DNA from: Acidobacteriota bacterium
GTDB lineage: Bacteria; Acidobacteriota; Terriglobia; Terriglobales; SCQP01
Direction of reading: 5' to 3'
Assembly (NCBI GenBank): GCA_027315185.1
Contig: DAHUYO010000002.1
Coordinates: forward strand, 23,800-87,799
Length of the DNA stretch: 64,000 nt
The position numbers were made by a program, and so were the translations under genes. The notes beneath the pieces were generated by a model. That model saw only the letters and a list, made by a program, of their open reading frames with translations, was not told where the DNA came from and made no database searches. Below, one piece after another: positions 33,961 through 48,572 of this stretch (within the stretch, counting starts at the first letter, position 1; each line of letters starts with the position of its first letter).

Positions 33961-35460
33961 TCAGGCGCGGTCCGCGGCGGCGGGCGCGGCGAATGGCCAT
34001 TCCCGCCGCCGCGCCGCCCGCCACAAATACAGCACCACGCCGGCGGCGGCGATGGCGATGGCGAGAAACAGCTGCTGGCCGAAGGCGTGGCGGGAAACCA
34101 CGACGTAGAGGAACCCGACGATGGCCACGACGACGGGGATCGGATACAGCCACATGCGGAATGGCCGCGGCGTTTCCGGATGCTTCCAGCGCAGCCACAG
34201 CAGCCCGAACTGTTGCAGCGAAAACTGGAGCAGCACGCGAATGACCACCAGCGCGGCGATGACCTGCGCCAACTGGAAGAAGCAAAACGCCATCGCCGTC
34301 AGGCCCATCGCCACCAGGGAAACATGGGGGAATTTATGGCGGGGATGCAGGCGCTGGAAGCTCTTGAAGAAATTGCCATCCAGGGCAGCGGCGTAGGGCA
34401 CGCGGGAGTAGCCGAGCAACAGGGAAAAAATGGAGCCGAAGGCGGTCCAGATGATCAGCAGCGTCACGGCGTCCGCGGCCCAGGAGCCGTAGATGCGCTG
34501 CATCATCACCGAAACCACCGACAGCTGGGCGCTGGCCCGGCCGCCCGACAGCATCTCCCGCCACGGCACCACGCCCAGCAGGCTGATGTTCATGACGATG
34601 TAGATGGCCGCCACCGCCAGAATGGAATAAATGACCGCGCGGGGAATGTTGCGCTCCGGGTCGCGCACCTCGCCGCCCAAATAACAGATGTTGTAGTAGC
34701 CCCAGTAGTCGTAGATCGAGATCAGCAGCGCGCCGCCCAGGCCGAGAAAGAAACCGCTGGAGAAGCGGAAGGCGCCGGGGGGAAAGCTGAAGGCGCGATG
34801 GGCGTCGAAGTGGGTGACGCCGGCGAAGACGATCCAGGCCACGGTCAGCAGCACGCCGCCGCACAGGAACTGCGTCACCCGCCCGACGCCGCTGATGTTG
34901 CGATACAGCAGCAGCATCGCCAGGCCGCAGACGCCGATCGCCGCCAGCGTGCCGGCCGTCACCGCCAGATGCGCGTGAATGGCGCCGCCCAGCGGCAGAG
35001 GCAGGGCGAAGGTGTGCTGGAACCAGACGCGGCGCAGCGGCGGGAAAAGATAGCTGGCGTAGTCGGCCAAGCCAATGCAGCCGGTGGCGATGGAAAGCGG
35101 GGCGCTAAAGCTGAGCTGCCAGATGAACAAAAACGAGACCAGCCGGCCCAAGCCCGAGGCCCCATAGATTTGCTTCAGGTATTCATAAGGACCGCCGGCG
35201 CGCGGCATGGAGGCGCCGAGTTCAGCGCTGACCAGCCCGTCGCAAAGGGCCAACAGCGCGCCCAGGATCCAGCCCAGCATGGCCTGCGGACCGCCCATGG
35301 CGGCGACGATCAGCGGGATGGTAATGAACGGCCCGACGCCGATCATGTCGAGCATGTTCAGCGCCACCGCGCCGCCCAGGCCCATGCCGCGCTCCAAATG
35401 GGGGCGGGCGGCGGGCTCCGCCGGAGCATTCACAGGAACCGGATTGGCGGGACGTTCCAT
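33961..35460 (-). CDS. APC family amino acid permease
   Basis: MLDMIGVGPFITIPLI...LVSAELGASMPRAGGPYEYL, with 12 or more hydrophobic segments. Start ATG 35460. The upstream part of the track ORF is not protein-like. Confidence 0.88.
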   Translation of the reverse strand: MERPANPVPVNAPAEPAARPHLERGMGLGGAVALNMLDMIGVGPFITIPLIVAAMGGPQAMLGWILGALLALCDGLVSAELGASMPRAGGPYEYLKQIYGASGLGRLVSFLFIWQLSFSAPLSIATGCIGLADYASYLFPPLRRVWFQHTFALPLPLGGAIHAHLAVTAGTLAAIGVCGLAMLLLYRNISGVGRVTQFLCGGVLLTVAWIVFAGVTHFDAHRAFSFPPGAFRFSSGFFLGLGGALLISIYDYWGYYNICYLGGEVRDPERNIPRAVIYSILAVAAIYIVMNISLLGVVPWREMLSGGRASAQLSVVSVMMQRIYGSWAADAVTLLIIWTAFGSIFSLLLGYSRVPYAAALDGNFFKSFQRLHPRHKFPHVSLVAMGLTAMAFCFFQLAQVIAALVVIRVLLQFSLQQFGLLWLRWKHPETPRPFRMWLYPIPVVVAIVGFLYVVVSRHAFGQQLFLAIAIAAAGVVLYLWRAARRREWPFAAPAAADRA

Positions 35461-35556: not shown

Positions 35557-37233
35557 ATGCGCCATCATCGGCTCACTGCCGGTTGGATCACCGCCATCCT
35601 GCTGGCTGCGGGCGCCTTCGCCGCGCCGCGGCCGCCCCGCCATCCGTTCGACATCGTGATCACCGGCGGCCACATCTATGACGGCACCGGCTCGCCGTGG
35701 TACTCCGGCGACATCGGCATCCGTGACGGCCGCATCGCCGCCATCGGCGATCTGCGCGGCGCGCCGCGGCGGAAGACTATTGGCGCCCGCGGCCTGGCGG
35801 TCGCGCCGGGCTTCATTGACATGCTCGACCAATCGGGCCGCAGCATCCTCCGCCATTCCCGACTGGTGTCAAAAATCTACCAGGGCATCACGACCGTGGT
35901 CACCGGCGAGGGCACGTCGGTGGCGCCGCGCTGGCCCGGCGCCCACGGCCGCGGCGCCGCCGGACCCGGCTGGACGACGTTTGCCCAGTACTTCGCCCAG
36001 ATCCAGCGCCGCCGCATCGGCGTCAACTTGGCCAGCTTTGTCGGCGCGGCCACGGTGCGGGAAATGGTTCTCGGCGATGGCGACGTGCAGCCGACGGCGG
36101 CGCAGCTGCGGCGCATGCAGGCGCTGGTGCGCCAGGCCATGCGCGACGGCGCGGTCGGGCTTTCCACCGCACTGCAATATCCCCCAGCCCCATTCGCCAA
36201 AACGCCGGAGCTGATCGCGCTGGCCCGCGCCGCCTCCGAATACGGCGGCATCTACGCCACCCACCTGCGCAGCGAAGGCGCCAAGGAGCCGCAGGCGGTG
36301 GCCGAAGCCATCCGCATCGGCCGGGAGGCGCATATTCCCGTCGAGATTTTCCACATCAAGGAGGCCGGGCACGCCAACTGGGGCAAAATGCCGCAACTCG
36401 TCGCCCAAATTGACGCCGCCCGCGCCGCCGGCGTGGACATCTTCGCCAGCACCTACGCCTACACCGCCTGGTCCAACGGCCTGTCTTCCTTCATTCCGCC
36501 CTGGGCGCACATCGGCGGCGCGGCGGCGCTGGTGCGCAATCTCCGCAACCCGGCGACGCGCGCCCGCATTCGCGCCGACTTGCTGAACCCCGCCAGTTGG
36601 GGCAACAACGATTGGCAGGAAATACCGGGGCCCCAAGCCGTGGAGATCGTCGGCGTGCACAATCCGGCGCTGCGGCGTTTTGAAGGCGAGCGCCTCTCGC
36701 AAGTGGCCGCCGCCTGGCATGAGGACGCGATGGACGCGCTCTTCGATTTCCTGATCAAGGATGACGCGCAAACCTCCGTCGCCGTGTTCGGCATGAGCGA
36801 GCCGGATGTCGAACTGGCCCTGCGCCAGCCCTGGGTCTCCATCTGCACCGACGCCACCGGCACTTCGCCTTCCCCCACCGCGCACCCGCATCCGCGCGCC
36901 TACGGCACCTTCCCCCGCATCCTGCGGAAATATGTCCGGCAGGATCACCTGCTGACCTTGGCCGACGCCATCCGCAAGATGACCGCCCTGCCGGCGGCGC
37001 AAATGCGATTCAGCGATCGCGGCGTCATCAAGCGCGGCATGTGGGCGGACCTGGTCGTCTTCAATCCAACCACCATCCGCGACCGCGCCACCTACAACCA
37101 TCCCCAGCATTTCGCCCAAGGCATGGAATGGGTGCTGGTGAACGGCGTGCCGGTCATCGCGCAGGGAAAAATGACCGGCGCCCTGCCGGGCCGCGTGCTG
37201 CGCGGCCCGGGGTATCGCTCGCCCGCGCCTTGA
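35557..37233 (+). CDS. N-acyl-D-amino-acid deacylase (D-aminoacylase) family amidohydrolase, secreted
   Basis: Signal-like N-terminus, DIVITGGHIYDGTGSPWYSGDIGIRDGRIAAIGDL, GFIDMLD, and a C-terminal VLVNGVPV block. GGAGAGG RBS. Confidence 0.88.
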   Translation: MRHHRLTAGWITAILLAAGAFAAPRPPRHPFDIVITGGHIYDGTGSPWYSGDIGIRDGRIAAIGDLRGAPRRKTIGARGLAVAPGFIDMLDQSGRSILRHSRLVSKIYQGITTVVTGEGTSVAPRWPGAHGRGAAGPGWTTFAQYFAQIQRRRIGVNLASFVGAATVREMVLGDGDVQPTAAQLRRMQALVRQAMRDGAVGLSTALQYPPAPFAKTPELIALARAASEYGGIYATHLRSEGAKEPQAVAEAIRIGREAHIPVEIFHIKEAGHANWGKMPQLVAQIDAARAAGVDIFASTYAYTAWSNGLSSFIPPWAHIGGAAALVRNLRNPATRARIRADLLNPASWGNNDWQEIPGPQAVEIVGVHNPALRRFEGERLSQVAAAWHEDAMDALFDFLIKDDAQTSVAVFGMSEPDVELALRQPWVSICTDATGTSPSPTAHPHPRAYGTFPRILRKYVRQDHLLTLADAIRKMTALPAAQMRFSDRGVIKRGMWADLVVFNPTTIRDRATYNHPQHFAQGMEWVLVNGVPVIAQGKMTGALPGRVLRGPGYRSPAP

Positions 37234-37320
37234 GATTCGGCTGCGCCGTGCGGTTTCCGCGCCGCCCGCCGCGCCCGCAGCGGCCGTGCGCGTCGGGCCT
37301 TCGCGCGACCCTGAGGGGCG

Positions 37321-38148
37321 TCACCGCCGGCACATGGGCGGACGCGTGCGGGGGCGATTTGTGGGCCCGCGCCTATTGCCTATCCGATGACGGGCGGCGC
37401 GTTTTTCGATGGCGGCGATCGCCCGCTGGGCTTGGCTGCAAATGTCGTAGCTGCGGTGGGGATGGCAGGTGGGGTCGGAACCGGCAACGCGGCGGAGCAC
37501 AGCAATGTCCGCCGGCGTGCCCACCAGGCCGAGGGCCCATACCGCGGTGAAGCGGACGGAGATGGAGCGGCCCCGCGCCGCCGCGCGCAGCTGGCCTAGC
37601 GCCCATTTCTCCTGAGCCGCCGTAAGGGGATGCCGGATTTTTCCCTCCGCCTGACGCTGAAGCATGAACGCCAGCACGCCGATCGCCTGGGCCCGCCAGG
37701 GATCCAGCGGGTCCGCTAGTAGCCTCCGTACCGCAGGCAGGGCCCTGGCGCCCTCGGCGGAAACGTCGAACGCAAACGCGCGCCGTGGGTCGTGAGCACC
37801 GAAGATCAAGGCGCGCAGGATAAACGGATCGCGAAAGCCGAAAGCCTTCTGCACGACGTCGGAAAGCTCGGCGCCCAGCTCGGCGAGGCCCTCTGGCGTC
37901 TCCCGGCCGCAGGAAAAGTTGGCCCGGAAAATGCGGTTATCTCCGGCAAGGACGCGCGCCAGCGCCCGGCCCACTGCGGGGTTTCGGAGCATCCGCTTGT
38001 CGCGGACGAGTTCGCGCTGGCCCTTGGCTCGCGTCGCCAGGTTCCGCGACGCCACCATCGCCAGGATCCTGTGCTGAGCGGCGGTAATCGCAGCGCTGGG
38101 CGGCGACTGTAACGCCAACGCCGCGCCGAGAAGAGCGGCTGCGATCAT
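37321..38148 (-). CDS. hypothetical secreted all-alpha (HEAT/ARM-like) protein; candidate partner of orphan tip CT3
   Basis: Signal peptide MIAAALLGAALALQSPPSAA from ATG 38148 (GGGGGGA upstream; alternatives are 38184 and 38229). Helical repeat-like composition. Unrelated to partners A and B. Confidence 0.5.
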   Translation of the reverse strand: MIAAALLGAALALQSPPSAAITAAQHRILAMVASRNLATRAKGQRELVRDKRMLRNPAVGRALARVLAGDNRIFRANFSCGRETPEGLAELGAELSDVVQKAFGFRDPFILRALIFGAHDPRRAFAFDVSAEGARALPAVRRLLADPLDPWRAQAIGVLAFMLQRQAEGKIRHPLTAAQEKWALGQLRAAARGRSISVRFTAVWALGLVGTPADIAVLRRVAGSDPTCHPHRSYDICSQAQRAIAAIEKRAARHRIGNRRGPTNRPRTRPPMCRR

Positions 38149-38422
38149 ATGTCCCCCCGCCGTCAGAACCCGACCCGCCGCCATTCGGGCCCCATTTCGC
38201 TGGGCAGCCGCCGGAGCGCCAGTCGGCATGAAGGTGGTTGAGGCTTGACTCGTTCTCCGGCTCCGCGCAAGCTCCGGCGTCCCAGGCGTCAGCGTGGAGC
38301 GTTCCACATGGCCTGGTCGCCAAAGGTCGCAAAATCTATGGCGGTGCCGAACATGTGCTGGCGATCCGCCGTGCCGCCGATCGCCGCGTTGTGCGCGGGG
38401 TTGCGGTAGCCGCTCATTGCGG

Positions 38423-38784
38423 TCAGGGGGTGCCTCCGTTGTCCGCCCGCGTCGCCTCAATGCCCGCGAGAAGCGAGGACCGCAAAATGGCGCAGGTGTA
38501 ATCTTCGCTGACCGTCAGCTCGGCGACGCTGAAATTCGCCGTCGAGGCGTTGTTGGTGAAGTCCGAACAGTTGGGGACGAAGGGCACGCCGTTCTGCTCC
38601 ACGTTGTAGGTAATGTATTCCTGAACCAGCGCGCCCCGGTTGCCGCTCTGCGGGCTGGGCGGGTCGCCGCAGAGCGTCACCGTCGCCGGCGGCGGCGGGC
38701 TGAGGGTGACCGGAGCGGAGTAGCGGCTCGAGGAATCGTCGTAACCGTAGCAGCCAACTCCGCCCAGCCTGATGGGCTCAGGCC
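38423..38784 (-). other. orphan C-terminal cassette 3 (short constant stub plus unrelated tip CT3) of the polymorphic locus
   Basis: It begins immediately after the partner B stop (38785-38787). It encodes ...PIRLGGVGCYGYDDSSSRYSAPVTLSPPPPATVT, which matches ITLGGVNCYGAYDTSSCYSAPVTLSPPPPATVT of the main gene. This is followed by the novel tail LCGDPPSPQSGNRGALVQEYITYNVEQNGVPFVPNCSDFTNNASTANFSVAELTVSEDYTCAILRSSLLAGIEATRADNGGTP*. The track ORF is 38423-38863 from a GTG. Confidence 0.65.
38676..38724 (-). repeat. 49-bp third copy of the constant-region repeat (orphan cassette 3)
   Basis: gtcaccgtcgccggcggcggcgggctgagggtgaccggagcggagtagc matches 41746-41794 with 1 mismatch. Weaker similarity continues to about 38775. 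Confidence 0.85.
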
Positions 38785-39531
38785 TCACGTGCCGCCACCT
38801 GGGTGGCTGCTCGCAGAGACCCCCGGGATCGGCGGGGCCGGGGCCTGCGCCAGCGGGATCCACCGCCAGCTCGCCAGGCCGCCCATGGCGTCGCCCCGGG
38901 TTCTCGGGAGCCTCGGGAACACGACCACGGAGGAGAATTGCGGGGCACTGCGCATTGCGAGTGACAACACCCTGCGGACCATGACGTGCTCAAGAGTGCG
39001 GCGCGGAAGCTGACAGCCGAGGCCGGGCAGTGTCGGGCCGGCGATGACCATGGCGCCCGGTAGGGATGGTGAGGCCGCGGTGAGCTCGGTCAATTGCGGC
39101 AGGAACAACCCAACCGGCCCCGCCAGACGGACACGCGGCAGGCGCCAATTTAGAAAATTCTGCCGCCGCCGCCGGAGCGGGCCGTAGGTAAACCACGCGA
39201 CTCCGCCGCGCCGGCGCCAGGAGTATCCCGGGGCGGCGGCCGCCAGCTCCCCGAGAAGGGCGGCGGGCGTGAGCCTGCCGGCGGGGATTTTGGCCTGCGG
39301 GACCGGTGCGACCGAGACGATAGATACGGGGATCCCCGCTCGGTGGGCGATGTCCAAAATGGCCGAATCCAGCCGTAAAGTGCGCGCCGACCACGTGAGC
39401 GGGCGCCGGAGGCGGAGAGCGACGGCACGCTTCAGGCCGGCGGGGCCGCACGGTAGGGACGGAGGCGTGCCCCGCGCGGCGCGGGGAACCAGCAGTGCGG
39501 CGGCAAGCAGCGGTGCGCAGGCTCGCATCAT
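38785..39531 (-). CDS. small secreted partner protein B (paralogue of A) of orphan cassette 2
   Basis: The start ATGATG overlaps the TGA of cassette 2 (CAATGATG). Signal peptide MMRACAPLLAAALLVPRAARG. Blocks shared with A: LTWSARTLRLDSAILDIAHRAGIPVS, LTPAALLGELAAAAPGYSW, QNFLNWRL and ASWRWIPL. Confidence 0.75.
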   Translation of the reverse strand: MMRACAPLLAAALLVPRAARGTPPSLPCGPAGLKRAVALRLRRPLTWSARTLRLDSAILDIAHRAGIPVSIVSVAPVPQAKIPAGRLTPAALLGELAAAAPGYSWRRRGGVAWFTYGPLRRRRQNFLNWRLPRVRLAGPVGLFLPQLTELTAASPSLPGAMVIAGPTLPGLGCQLPRRTLEHVMVRRVLSLAMRSAPQFSSVVVFPRLPRTRGDAMGGLASWRWIPLAQAPAPPIPGVSASSHPGGGT

Positions 39532-47309: not shown

Positions 47310-48572
47310 ATGCTCCTCAAATTCACCGTCGAGAACTACCTTTCGATCCGCGAAAAGCAGGAACTTTCCCTCGTTGCGACCGGCGGCCTCCGCAGTGGGC
47401 CCACGGTTGCCCTGGGCAGGGCGGGGCATTTCGGCGTGCTCCCCGCAGCCGCGATCTACGGCGCCAACGCCGCCGGAAAGACGAATGTCCTCGCCGCCCT
47501 TGCGTTCGCGGCGGCGGCGGTTCGGTTCTCGCAAACCAACTGGCCTGCGAACGGCGGCGTGCCGCGCGTGCCGTTCCGGCTCGACCCTCGATGGAAAATG
47601 CGGCCGACGGCCATTGAGTTCGACCTCTGGCTGGACGGTGCGCGGCACACCTACGGGTTCGAGGCGGACGATGAGCGGGTCCTCAGGGAGTGGCTGGACG
47701 ATTTTCCAAACGGTCGCCGCAGAATGCGCTTCACGCGTGACGGTGGGCGATTCGAGTTCGGCCGCGGCTTCGGTGGCGCGCTCGCGAGAAAGGTGACACG
47801 CGGGAACAGCCTGTACCTTTCGGCGGCCGCCCAGAGCAATCAGCCCGAGGCAAAGAAAATTTCGGGCTGGTTCACCGACGGGGTCGCGTTCGTGATGGGC
47901 CCGCGGCTGCCTGGCCCTGGGGAATTCGGGAGGGCCGTTGGCGATTCCAAGGTCGCCGCCGAGATCAGCCAGGCCCTGGCCGGAGCAGACCTGGGCATAA
48001 CGGGCTTCAGGATGAAATCGGGCCAGATCGACAAGGAGTACATGGCAATCTACGAGCGGATTCGCCGCGCCGTCCCGGAAGCGGAGCTCCCGGCAAGCCC
48101 GGAGGCCAACAGCCTCGCCTTCGCGCACCGCGCCGAGGGGGGCCCGGTGGAGATCGAACTCGGGCAGGAGTCGGCGGGAACGGTCTCCTACCTCGGCCTG
48201 CTTCTCCACGCCCGTGAGGCGCTAGCGCGCGGCGCCGTCCTTTGCGTCGACGAGATCGAAAGGGCCCTGCACCCGCTGCTAGCCGGGGAGGTTGTCCGGT
48301 TCTTCCAGGATCCTCGGCGTAACAGGTCGGGAGCCCAACTCGTCTTCAACACCCACGACACCAACCTCCTGAGCGGAGACCTGCTCCGCCGCGACCAGGT
48401 GTGGTTCACCGAGAAGGACCGGAACGGTGCCACGCACCTCTACCCACTGACCGACTTCAAGCCCCGCGGAGACGAGAGCCTGGCAAAGGGCTACCTCCAG
48501 GGTCGGTACGGTGCTCTGCCGTTCTTGGGAGAGCTGGGCGAGGTATTGCTATGGCGGGACGGGAATGCCTAA
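47310..48572 (+). CDS. AAA/ABC-type ATPase (COG1106, AbiLi/RloA-like)
   Basis: MLLKFTVENYLSIREKQELSL..., Walker A IYGANAAGKTNVLAAL, Walker B-like LCVDEIERALHP, then LVFNTHDTNLL. Local GC is visibly lower. AT-rich promoter-like DNA at 47230-47309. Confidence 0.85.
   Translation: MLLKFTVENYLSIREKQELSLVATGGLRSGPTVALGRAGHFGVLPAAAIYGANAAGKTNVLAALAFAAAAVRFSQTNWPANGGVPRVPFRLDPRWKMRPTAIEFDLWLDGARHTYGFEADDERVLREWLDDFPNGRRRMRFTRDGGRFEFGRGFGGALARKVTRGNSLYLSAAAQSNQPEAKKISGWFTDGVAFVMGPRLPGPGEFGRAVGDSKVAAEISQALAGADLGITGFRMKSGQIDKEYMAIYERIRRAVPEAELPASPEANSLAFAHRAEGGPVEIELGQESAGTVSYLGLLLHAREALARGAVLCVDEIERALHPLLAGEVVRFFQDPRRNRSGAQLVFNTHDTNLLSGDLLRRDQVWFTEKDRNGATHLYPLTDFKPRGDESLAKGYLQGRYGALPFLGELGEVLLWRDGNA

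Follow-up and report, generated by a model that had tools for sequence, protein, structure and literature searches.

A frame-disrupted Peptidase_M15_3 cassette next to an intact HEAT-like gene in a polymorphic-toxin-like locus of an Acidobacteriota bacterium

The locus described here lies on a 64,000-nucleotide (nt) stretch of an Acidobacteriota genome (GenBank assembly GCA_027315185.1, contig DAHUYO010000002.1, positions 23,800 to 87,799), which we call the window and in whose numbering coordinates are given; the genes of interest are all on the minus strand. The locus consists of a main gene followed by orphan cassettes, each with a gene of its own downstream, and our subject is the last of these, cassette 3, together with the gene behind it. 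We find that the C-terminal tip encoded by cassette 3 is a Peptidase_M15_3 domain, predicted to be a zinc peptidase of the LAS fold, that its reading frame is disrupted here by three deletions, and that the gene that follows, which encodes a HEAT-like helical-repeat protein, is intact and under purifying selection. We consider it probable that cassette 3 is a recently decayed orphan cassette for a peptidoglycan-hydrolase toxin, with its periplasmic immunity gene kept, in a polymorphic-toxin-like locus.

A peptidase domain in three segments

Cassette 3 begins with a stub homologous to the main gene (38672..38765; ..LGGV.CYG.YD..S..YSAPVTLSPPPPATVT). Its DNA alignment with the main gene extends from about 38765 to 38672 (~95 nt), with near-identity over the last ~48 nt. 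The stub carries the motif PPPPATVT, which occurs three times: in the main gene (41766-41743), in cassette 2 (40250-40227) and in cassette 3 (38698-38675). An alignment of the three junctions places the junction after 38675: right after GTGACGC the sequences diverge abruptly, with cassette 3 continuing as LCGDPP... and the main gene as PSVSV.... A preliminary description of the region had stated that cassette 3 shares only a short stub with the main gene and branches from it at PPPPATVT, so that it would replace the stalk as well as the tip, and the alignments bear this out. The same description assigned the tip (CT3) to a different family from the other two, CT1 and CT2; we too find no similarity to CT1 (BLASTP E=0.26), and the family can now be named as M15. 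The stub is presumed to be a recombination handle; its length varies, from ~95 nt in the window to as much as ~115 amino acids (aa) on contigs L003 and L005.

The open reading frame (ORF) of cassette 3 runs from 38863 to 38423, ending in a TGA at 38425-38423, and encodes 83 aa beyond the junction. One earlier claim, that of an ~85-aa tip separated from the next gene by a 275-nt gap, has to be replaced. Three-frame translation of 38900-38050 shows that the 275 nt between the two ORFs are coding sequence rather than spacer and hold the rest of the tip domain in two other frames, so that the true tip is ~175 aa long. The frame-corrected 175-aa sequence matches PF08291 (Peptidase_M15_3) with E=6e-11 and 42.9 bits (cut-off 23.2), in an alignment that spans the first frameshift at the junction of segments 1 and 2, and a profile of its homologues matches PDB entry 1LBU, the muramoyl-pentapeptide (zinc D-Ala-D-Ala) carboxypeptidase of Streptomyces albus G, with E=4e-11, making this the closest solved relative. 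The uncorrected 146-aa ORF alone has no Pfam match, and an NCBIfam search of the tip returned nothing.

The first segment of the remnant (38426..38674), in the frame of the stub, reads LCGDPP...FSVAELTVSEDYTCAILR...RADNGGTP, is 84% identical to the intact protein P0001, and then runs into the premature TGA. The first frameshift site (38426..38430) is a 1-nt deletion at or adjoining a run of five C, where homologues continue as ..GGTPLTV.. (alignment with L001 3412-4100). Segment 2 (38301..38426; LTAMSGYRNPAHNAAIGGTADRQHMFGTAIDFATFGDQAMWN), recognized by three-frame translation, lies in the second frame and is followed by the second frameshift site (38300..38303), a 2-nt deletion at which the window reads GGA--ACG and the relatives read GGAACACG (alignments with L001, L003 and L021). 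The original frame then resumes with TLHADAWDAGACAEPENESSLNHLHADWRSGGCPAKW..., and segment 3 (38153..38302; TLHADAWDAGACAEPENESSLNHLHADWRSGGCPAKWGPNGGGSGSDGG), in the first frame again, equals L021 except for indels. At the third site (38153..38158) there are 6 G where intact relatives have 7, the domain of the relatives ending in GGGDI-TGA.

Both zinc-ligand motifs are kept at the codon level in the remnant: H-x6-D (QHMFGTAID) in segment 2 and H-x-H/D (NHLHADW) in segment 3. The H, D, H and D positions of these motifs are invariant across the relatives (alignments A1, A2 and A3), and 63 of the 64 relatives match PF08291. The remnant also carries substitutions at positions that are near-invariant in the 64 relatives, W to C (DYTCAILR) and S to R (TADRQH), as well as an F to V change in segment 1 at a position conserved in relatives. 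With three deletions and a premature stop, cassette 3 has no continuous ORF for a folded M15 enzyme; the relatives are intact.

Inactivation or sequencing error

Protein searches with the joined sequence found homologues in a single frame: P0001, at 84% identity, with the same scaffold stub and ending in GGGDI; P0002, at 76%; and P0005, at 40%, with a different N-terminal part. Further intact M15 copies lie at L005 9159-10004 and L007 2-619. L021, an independent assembly that is 96.1% identical to the window over 4.9 kb and syntenic with it, including the amidohydrolase and permease genes, has an intact M15 domain. Between the window and L021, all frame-breaking indels fall within 38468-38158; the genes for the HEAT protein, the amidohydrolase and the permease (~4 kb of coding sequence on the flanks) have none, and the only other indel is one of 29 nt at 33981.

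Cassette 3 is thus most likely a recently inactivated pseudogene, judging from these comparisons. The alternative is that the three frameshifts are sequencing or assembly errors and that the living organism has an intact orphan M15 tip coupled to the HEAT gene through an ATGA overlap. Because two of the three indels are in homopolymers (C5 vs 6 and G6 vs 7) and the window matches L021 fully over the adjacent ~190 nt once the indels are set aside (38300-38108), this alternative keeps a small share of the probability, and the apparently draft or metagenome-assembled type of the source (a 102,865-bp contig) also speaks for it. We nevertheless regard it as improbable: ~4 kb of flanking coding sequence has no other frame-breaking indel relative to L021, 35 G/C runs of at least 5 nt lie within 26 kb of intact long ORFs of the window, long ORFs of 800-996 aa remain unbroken throughout the window, one of the lesions is a 2-nt deletion outside any homopolymer, and the indels are accompanied by the non-conservative changes at the near-invariant W and S positions. 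No relaxation is visible yet in the ratio of nonsynonymous to synonymous substitution rates (dN/dS) of the frame-corrected remnant (0.17-0.24), which is indistinguishable from that of intact copies; the inactivation, if real, is therefore recent. That the remnant is a decaying fragment, frame-disrupted relative to its homologues, refutes the notion of a CT3 that works in this genome; it does not refute the reading of the locus as a polymorphic-toxin system.

Annotation pipelines turn the pseudogene into an apparent spacer and a "hypothetical protein" of 121 aa (P0003, as the database itself calls the cassette 3 ORF). The GTG start of the 121-aa call (38785-38788) overlaps the TGA stop of gene B (GTGA), and a truncated peptide of stub plus partial M15 domain could in principle be translated by coupling to gene B.

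Some further irregularities were seen in M15 cassettes. Positions 38420-38480 (SSLLAGIEATRADNGGTP) are closer to the P0002-type M15 paralogue than to the L021 allele, although the latter is 96-100% identical elsewhere; this hints at gene conversion, with the patch coming from a type of cassette that the window no longer has. On L001, around 640-700, one extra nucleotide (..DFATL RRPSK..) sets the first M15 orphan apart from L006 3291-3788, to which it is 99% identical, and its ORF runs into the frame of the HEAT gene; this is either another disrupted copy or an assembly error. We rejected the idea that the first gene of L001 is a recombinant haplotype, a main gene with a captured M15 orphan: by BLAST, L001 1-6656 equals L006 3159-9810 at 99.2% identity, and the L001 contig therefore starts inside the stub of the orphan. 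In the positional orthologue of cassette 3 (L001 8880-8900), an 11-nt deletion just past the junction leaves the M15 domain intact but out of the frame of the stub.

The intact HEAT-like gene behind the remnant

The gene at 37321..38148 is intact and encodes a HEAT-like helical-repeat protein of 275 aa whose N-terminus resembles a signal peptide. This assignment draws on a HEAT_2 (PF13646) match that is sub-threshold, at 25.7 bits against a cut-off of 27.7, on the orthologues, and on adjacency to the M15 domain. The protein has no similarity to protein A, the product of the gene that follows the main gene (E=3.9); a PDB sequence search with it found no solved relative, and NCBIfam searches with it and with protein A returned nothing. 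The N-terminus (MIAAALLGAALALQSPPSAA) is uncharged and hydrophobic with an AxA-like SAA, signal-peptide-like by eye only, and distant homologues have canonical signal peptides. The protein thus fits its earlier portrayal as a helical-repeat protein with a signal-peptide-like start that is not a paralogue of A and B. Orthologues are 83-96% identical and the six database homologues 63-96% overall; with a dN/dS of 0.17-0.23, the gene is under purifying selection.

The start at ATG 38148, taken in the preliminary description, is supported because, in intact relatives, the M15 stop codon and the start codon behind it share bases (ATGA) and the helical frame is closed by a stop 5 codons upstream. 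An upstream ATG in the window (38182..38184; MAAGRV..) is in frame with the HEAT gene only through the G-run deletion; this ATG at 38184 is probably not a native start but a by-product of that deletion.

For structural information we turned to P0049, a natural fusion of the two modules. Its HEAT half is predicted as a confident alpha-solenoid (predicted local distance difference test, pLDDT, 80-95) that matches alphaRep, PP2A-A and armadillo proteins. We presume that the HEAT-like protein is the cognate periplasmic immunity or inhibitor protein of the M15 tip.

M15 and HEAT-family genes are found together

The co-occurrence of the helical protein with a CT3-like neighbour, raised in the preliminary description, is seen in other genomes: in every context read (those of P0008 and P0010 not being among them), the six database homologues of the HEAT protein come immediately behind an M15 gene, which they mostly overlap by 4 nt. 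More broadly, an M15 domain is followed by a HEAT-family gene in all readable contexts, namely the window, L001, L004-L010, L012, L013 and L021-L023, and CT1-type tips are followed by A/B-family genes. The composite syntenic locus L006/L001 has four M15 cassettes, each with a HEAT-family gene behind it. More distant M15-HEAT pairs are found in L004, where the N-terminal part is different, and in two metagenome-assembled genomes (MAGs), one of Terriglobales and one of Bryobacterales. For the pairs behind the unrelated scaffolds DUF7948+SBBP and Fn3_assoc/CHB_HEX_C/Big_2, which belong to other Acidobacteriota, the downstream genes match a HEAT hidden Markov model (HMM), built in this analysis, with E=3e-39 and 6e-42.

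In 6 of the 64 relatives (P0047, P0049, P0052, P0055, P0061 and P0083; alignment A3; 35-47% identity to P0049), signal peptide, M15 domain and HEAT module form a single chain, and in these the HEAT "immunity" module could also act as a cis-inhibitory pro-domain. Extra HEAT-family genes without a peptidase are present downstream of an M15-HEAT pair at L005 11122-12585, where a single ORF encodes a tandem fusion of two HEAT units, and at L009 1398-2603. These lone genes look like orphan immunity genes, as far as their sequence and placement go.

The scaffold and its exchangeable tips

In the main-gene product, residues ~20-600 are confidently modeled as a string of beta-sandwich domains, and the tips have no confident model. 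A Foldseek search of the scaffold against the PDB gave only generic Ig-like strings at TM ~0.1 (alpha-2-macroglobulin, S-layer proteins, LigA), with no clue to delivery. We found 18 scaffold homologues of 750-980 aa, 30-49% identical, labelled Terriglobales and all annotated as "hypothetical", with several different C-terminal ends. Where the main protein of the window starts is not certain (TTG 43689; the frame stays open as far as 43842). Among relatives of ~40% identity (P0014, P0015, P0018 and P0026), several have classical signal peptides, and all share GLWRTDGGF(V/I)STI just past the N-terminus.

Three tip types are seen at PPPPATVT: CT1/CT2, M15 and IPT-like. The last is in the full-length scaffold gene L006 3-2243, in which an IPT-like segment plus an unknown domain follow the motif; next comes a signal-peptide CarboxypepD_reg protein (2209-2940), and together the two would be a fourth tip/partner type. 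Two N-terminally truncated fragments, P0030 and P0033, have an M15 tip right after the conserved core of the scaffold. An exhaustive M15 profile search returned 7,644 proteins at E<=1e-3, of which 139 at E<=1e-30; the domain is almost always at the extreme C-terminus, in proteins of 170-1,096 aa, and the N-terminal parts that accompany it include Big_2, He_PIG, Kelch, SBBP, DUF7948, TSP_3, fn3, PKD and M23. Homologues of CT3 attached to other scaffolds thus exist, the 139 clusters at E<=1e-30 covering many scaffold types. As to the view that unrelated tips are mixed behind one delivery scaffold, the mixing stands, given the IPT-like tip of L006 and the M15 tips on the P0030/P0033 core and on DUF7948+SBBP, Fn3_assoc/CHB_HEX_C/Big_2, Kelch and He_PIG proteins; the delivery is an assumption, no recognized trafficking domain having been found in the scaffold and no secretion system in the window.

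By eye, the tips of P0014, P0016, P0018, P0021 and P0022 resemble 3D/DPBB-type (MltA/RlpA-like) domains (..IDLADGTFNDLG..YWRFQ; ..VLWRFNN); if so, the scaffold family may be specialized for cell-wall enzymes. The main gene at L005 4126-6564 has a CT1-type tip that lacks, through an in-frame internal deletion, ~60 aa present in the orphan at L001 1485-2399 (..GDTDVY|EVTDG..).

Layout and neighborhood of the locus

The region of the finding, cassette 3 plus the helical-protein gene, is the fifth of five elements on the minus strand. The first is the main gene (43689-41041, 882 aa), which is directly followed by the gene for protein A, a signal-peptide protein (41044-40277). Cassette 2, an orphan copy of the C-terminus of the main gene, is third and ends at 39528; the gene for the A-like protein B is fourth, ends at 38785, and immediately precedes cassette 3. 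A sigma-70 promoter scan of 37100-39000 found none, a result that is uninformative for this phylum. The window has a G+C content of ~69%, and its other genes encode a CarboxypepD_reg/TonB-type outer-membrane protein, a MacB/FtsX protein, a PIG-L protein, an amidohydrolase and UvrA; taken with the Terriglobales labels of the scaffold homologues, these features indicate an acidobacterium. Between the PIG-L and MacB/FtsX genes, near the toxin locus, a plus-strand gene (47310-48572) encodes an AAA_21 ATPase (AbiEii-type annotation in Pfam, E=4e-31). The 29-nt indel relative to L021 at ~33981 falls at the 3' end of the amino-acid permease gene, inside a GCCGCCGCGG repeat.

Discussion

Drawing on established knowledge of M15/LAS peptidases and of effector/immunity pairs that act in the periplasm, we propose the following mechanism for the locus and its relatives. 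Recombination at the PPPPATVT stub would join the M15 tip to the ~600-aa all-beta scaffold, with which it would be exported, and the exported tip would cleave peptide bonds in the peptidoglycan of a competitor. The HEAT protein, exported to the periplasm of the producer, would bind the peptidase and block it. Orphan cassettes would be a silent reservoir able to replace the expressed tip by recombination at the stub. In the window, the reservoir copy would have decayed and the immunity gene would have been kept, as expected if it protects against neighbors with an active tip. The toxicity of the tip, its action on peptidoglycan, its inhibition by the HEAT protein, the way in which it is exported and recombination switching are all features that we infer.

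Several results weigh against this proposal, in addition to the homopolymer setting of two of the lesions and the unrelaxed dN/dS discussed above. The main-gene scaffold has no Pfam or NCBIfam domain and no recognized trafficking or secretion domain, and the window contains no type VI secretion system (T6SS), contact-dependent inhibition (CDI), Rhs or type VII secretion system (T7SS) genes and no secretion genes in general. The main protein of the window has no evident signal peptide, although several of its homologues have Sec-type ones (some others also lack one). One-polypeptide M15-HEAT fusions are unusual for toxin/immunity pairs and would also fit an enzyme with a regulatory domain or pro-domain. 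Finally, in the model of the P0049 fusion, made from a 6-sequence alignment, the M15 half has a pLDDT of ~30 and no interface can be read.

These points lead to the main rival to a toxin/immunity pair, namely that M15 plus HEAT is a secreted wall-remodeling or lytic enzyme with a regulatory or pro-domain partner, and that the product of the main gene is S-layer-like or otherwise sits at the cell surface, its exchangeable enzymatic ends serving to work on the bacterium's own wall or to exploit dead cells as food. The six natural single chains of signal peptide, M15 and HEAT speak for this, the scaffold does resemble generic Ig-like strings that include S-layer proteins, secretion or injection machinery is absent nearby in the window, and other tips of the scaffold family look, by eye, 3D/DPBB-like and thus cell-wall-acting. 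Against it stand arrays of promoter-less orphan cassettes with stubs homologous to the main gene, tips that alternate at one junction, orphan HEAT genes without an enzyme (those of L005 and L009 given above), and a decayed enzyme beside a conserved partner. Because orphan arrays, stand-alone HEAT genes and this pattern of decay are signatures of conflict systems, we think the own-wall explanation unlikely and favor a decayed toxin cassette with a retained immunity gene. It is very improbable that the frame changes are themselves functional, through programmed frameshifting or through homopolymer phase variation as a switch for the tip: short G/C runs do occur at two of the sites and the G-run deletion does put the upstream ATG in frame with the HEAT gene, but three independent shifts would be needed, none is kept in any relative (all are single-frame), the runs are only 5-7 nt long, and a cassette without a scaffold would give no deliverable protein even on read-through.

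Among described systems, the locus is most readily compared with the orphan arrays of CdiA-CT/CdiI and Rhs-CT/RhsI, in which promoter-less fragments encoding C-terminal toxins lie behind a full-length gene, every fragment having homology to the main gene and its own immunity gene; that homology is thought to permit tip replacement by recombination, and the orphans often decay while the immunity genes persist (PMC3150448, PMC3967940). Our locus likewise has a main gene, stub-bearing orphans, a downstream gene for each orphan, and a decayed tip with a persisting partner. It differs in that its scaffold is outside the recognized trafficking families, in that no CdiB, T6SS or T7SS genes are nearby, and in that the signal-peptide-like N-termini noted for tips and immunity proteins would place them in the periplasm or at the cell wall and not in the cytoplasm.

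M15-type domains also figure among the predicted effectors of the T6SS: "Peptidase M15-like" WHIX effectors have been predicted (PMC12135965), and Tpe14 of Acinetobacter has a Peptidase_M15_3 domain (PMC6833914). As in the Tae/Tai and Tge/Tgi pairs, a cell-wall hydrolase (putative in our case) would serve as the antibacterial domain, with a signal-peptide-bearing immunity gene directly downstream. Unlike those pairs, however, the present one has no T6SS, VgrG, PAAR or WHIX marker, its presumed immunity protein is a HEAT-like solenoid, and this M15 subfamily has an N-terminal extension of its own (CGDxRDxIIxEY...CxDF). Imm-HEAT is itself a recognized immunity class, listed with Ntox34 and Tox-REase-7 toxins and not with a peptidase (Zhang et al. 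2012, PMC3482391). The likeness to it, drawn from its description, is that of an all-alpha HEAT-repeat protein encoded right after a polymorphic toxin tip and presumed to neutralize it by binding.

The S. albus G carboxypeptidase (1LBU) shares with the M15 tip the core F..AEL...SGYR..xN..VGG..S.H..G.A.D with its H/D zinc ligands. That enzyme, which we take to belong to MEROPS M15A, is secreted and bacteriolytic and acts on peptidoglycan peptides; unlike the M15 tip, it has an N-terminal peptidoglycan-binding domain and stands alone, with no partner inhibitor gene or polymorphic scaffold. Colicin M/Cmi and pesticin/Pim are diffusible bacteriocins that target the cell wall and are neutralized by a periplasmic immunity protein; colicin M and pesticin have other enzymatic folds than the M15 tip, have known receptor and translocation domains, and are plasmid-borne. 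Orphan-array architecture, M15-like predicted effectors and a HEAT immunity class were all known already; the scaffold of the present locus matches no described trafficking family.

For the window itself the practical outcome is modest, the cassette being a pseudogene. Acidobacteriota are abundant soil bacteria, and to our knowledge competition among them has hardly been studied. The locus and its relatives show the full pattern of polymorphic toxins, with tips that differ at a shared junction, with orphan cassettes and with immunity genes that persist; the scaffold is unnamed in databases, and the nature of the tips and their partners suggests a role at the cell wall and in the periplasm. More tentatively, it is possible, although we would not count on it, that the scaffold with its PPPPATVT-type junction represents an undescribed class of Acidobacteriota polymorphic toxins that delivers cell-wall hydrolases independently of any known secretion system, with the HEAT module as an inhibitor in two states, a separate immunity gene or a C-terminal pro-domain. 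If true, this two-state inhibitor would link zymogen-type self-protection and toxin/immunity pairs in evolution. The M15/HEAT pair is widespread and strictly co-located, which makes it a readily testable candidate for a new peptidoglycan-hydrolase/inhibitor pair.

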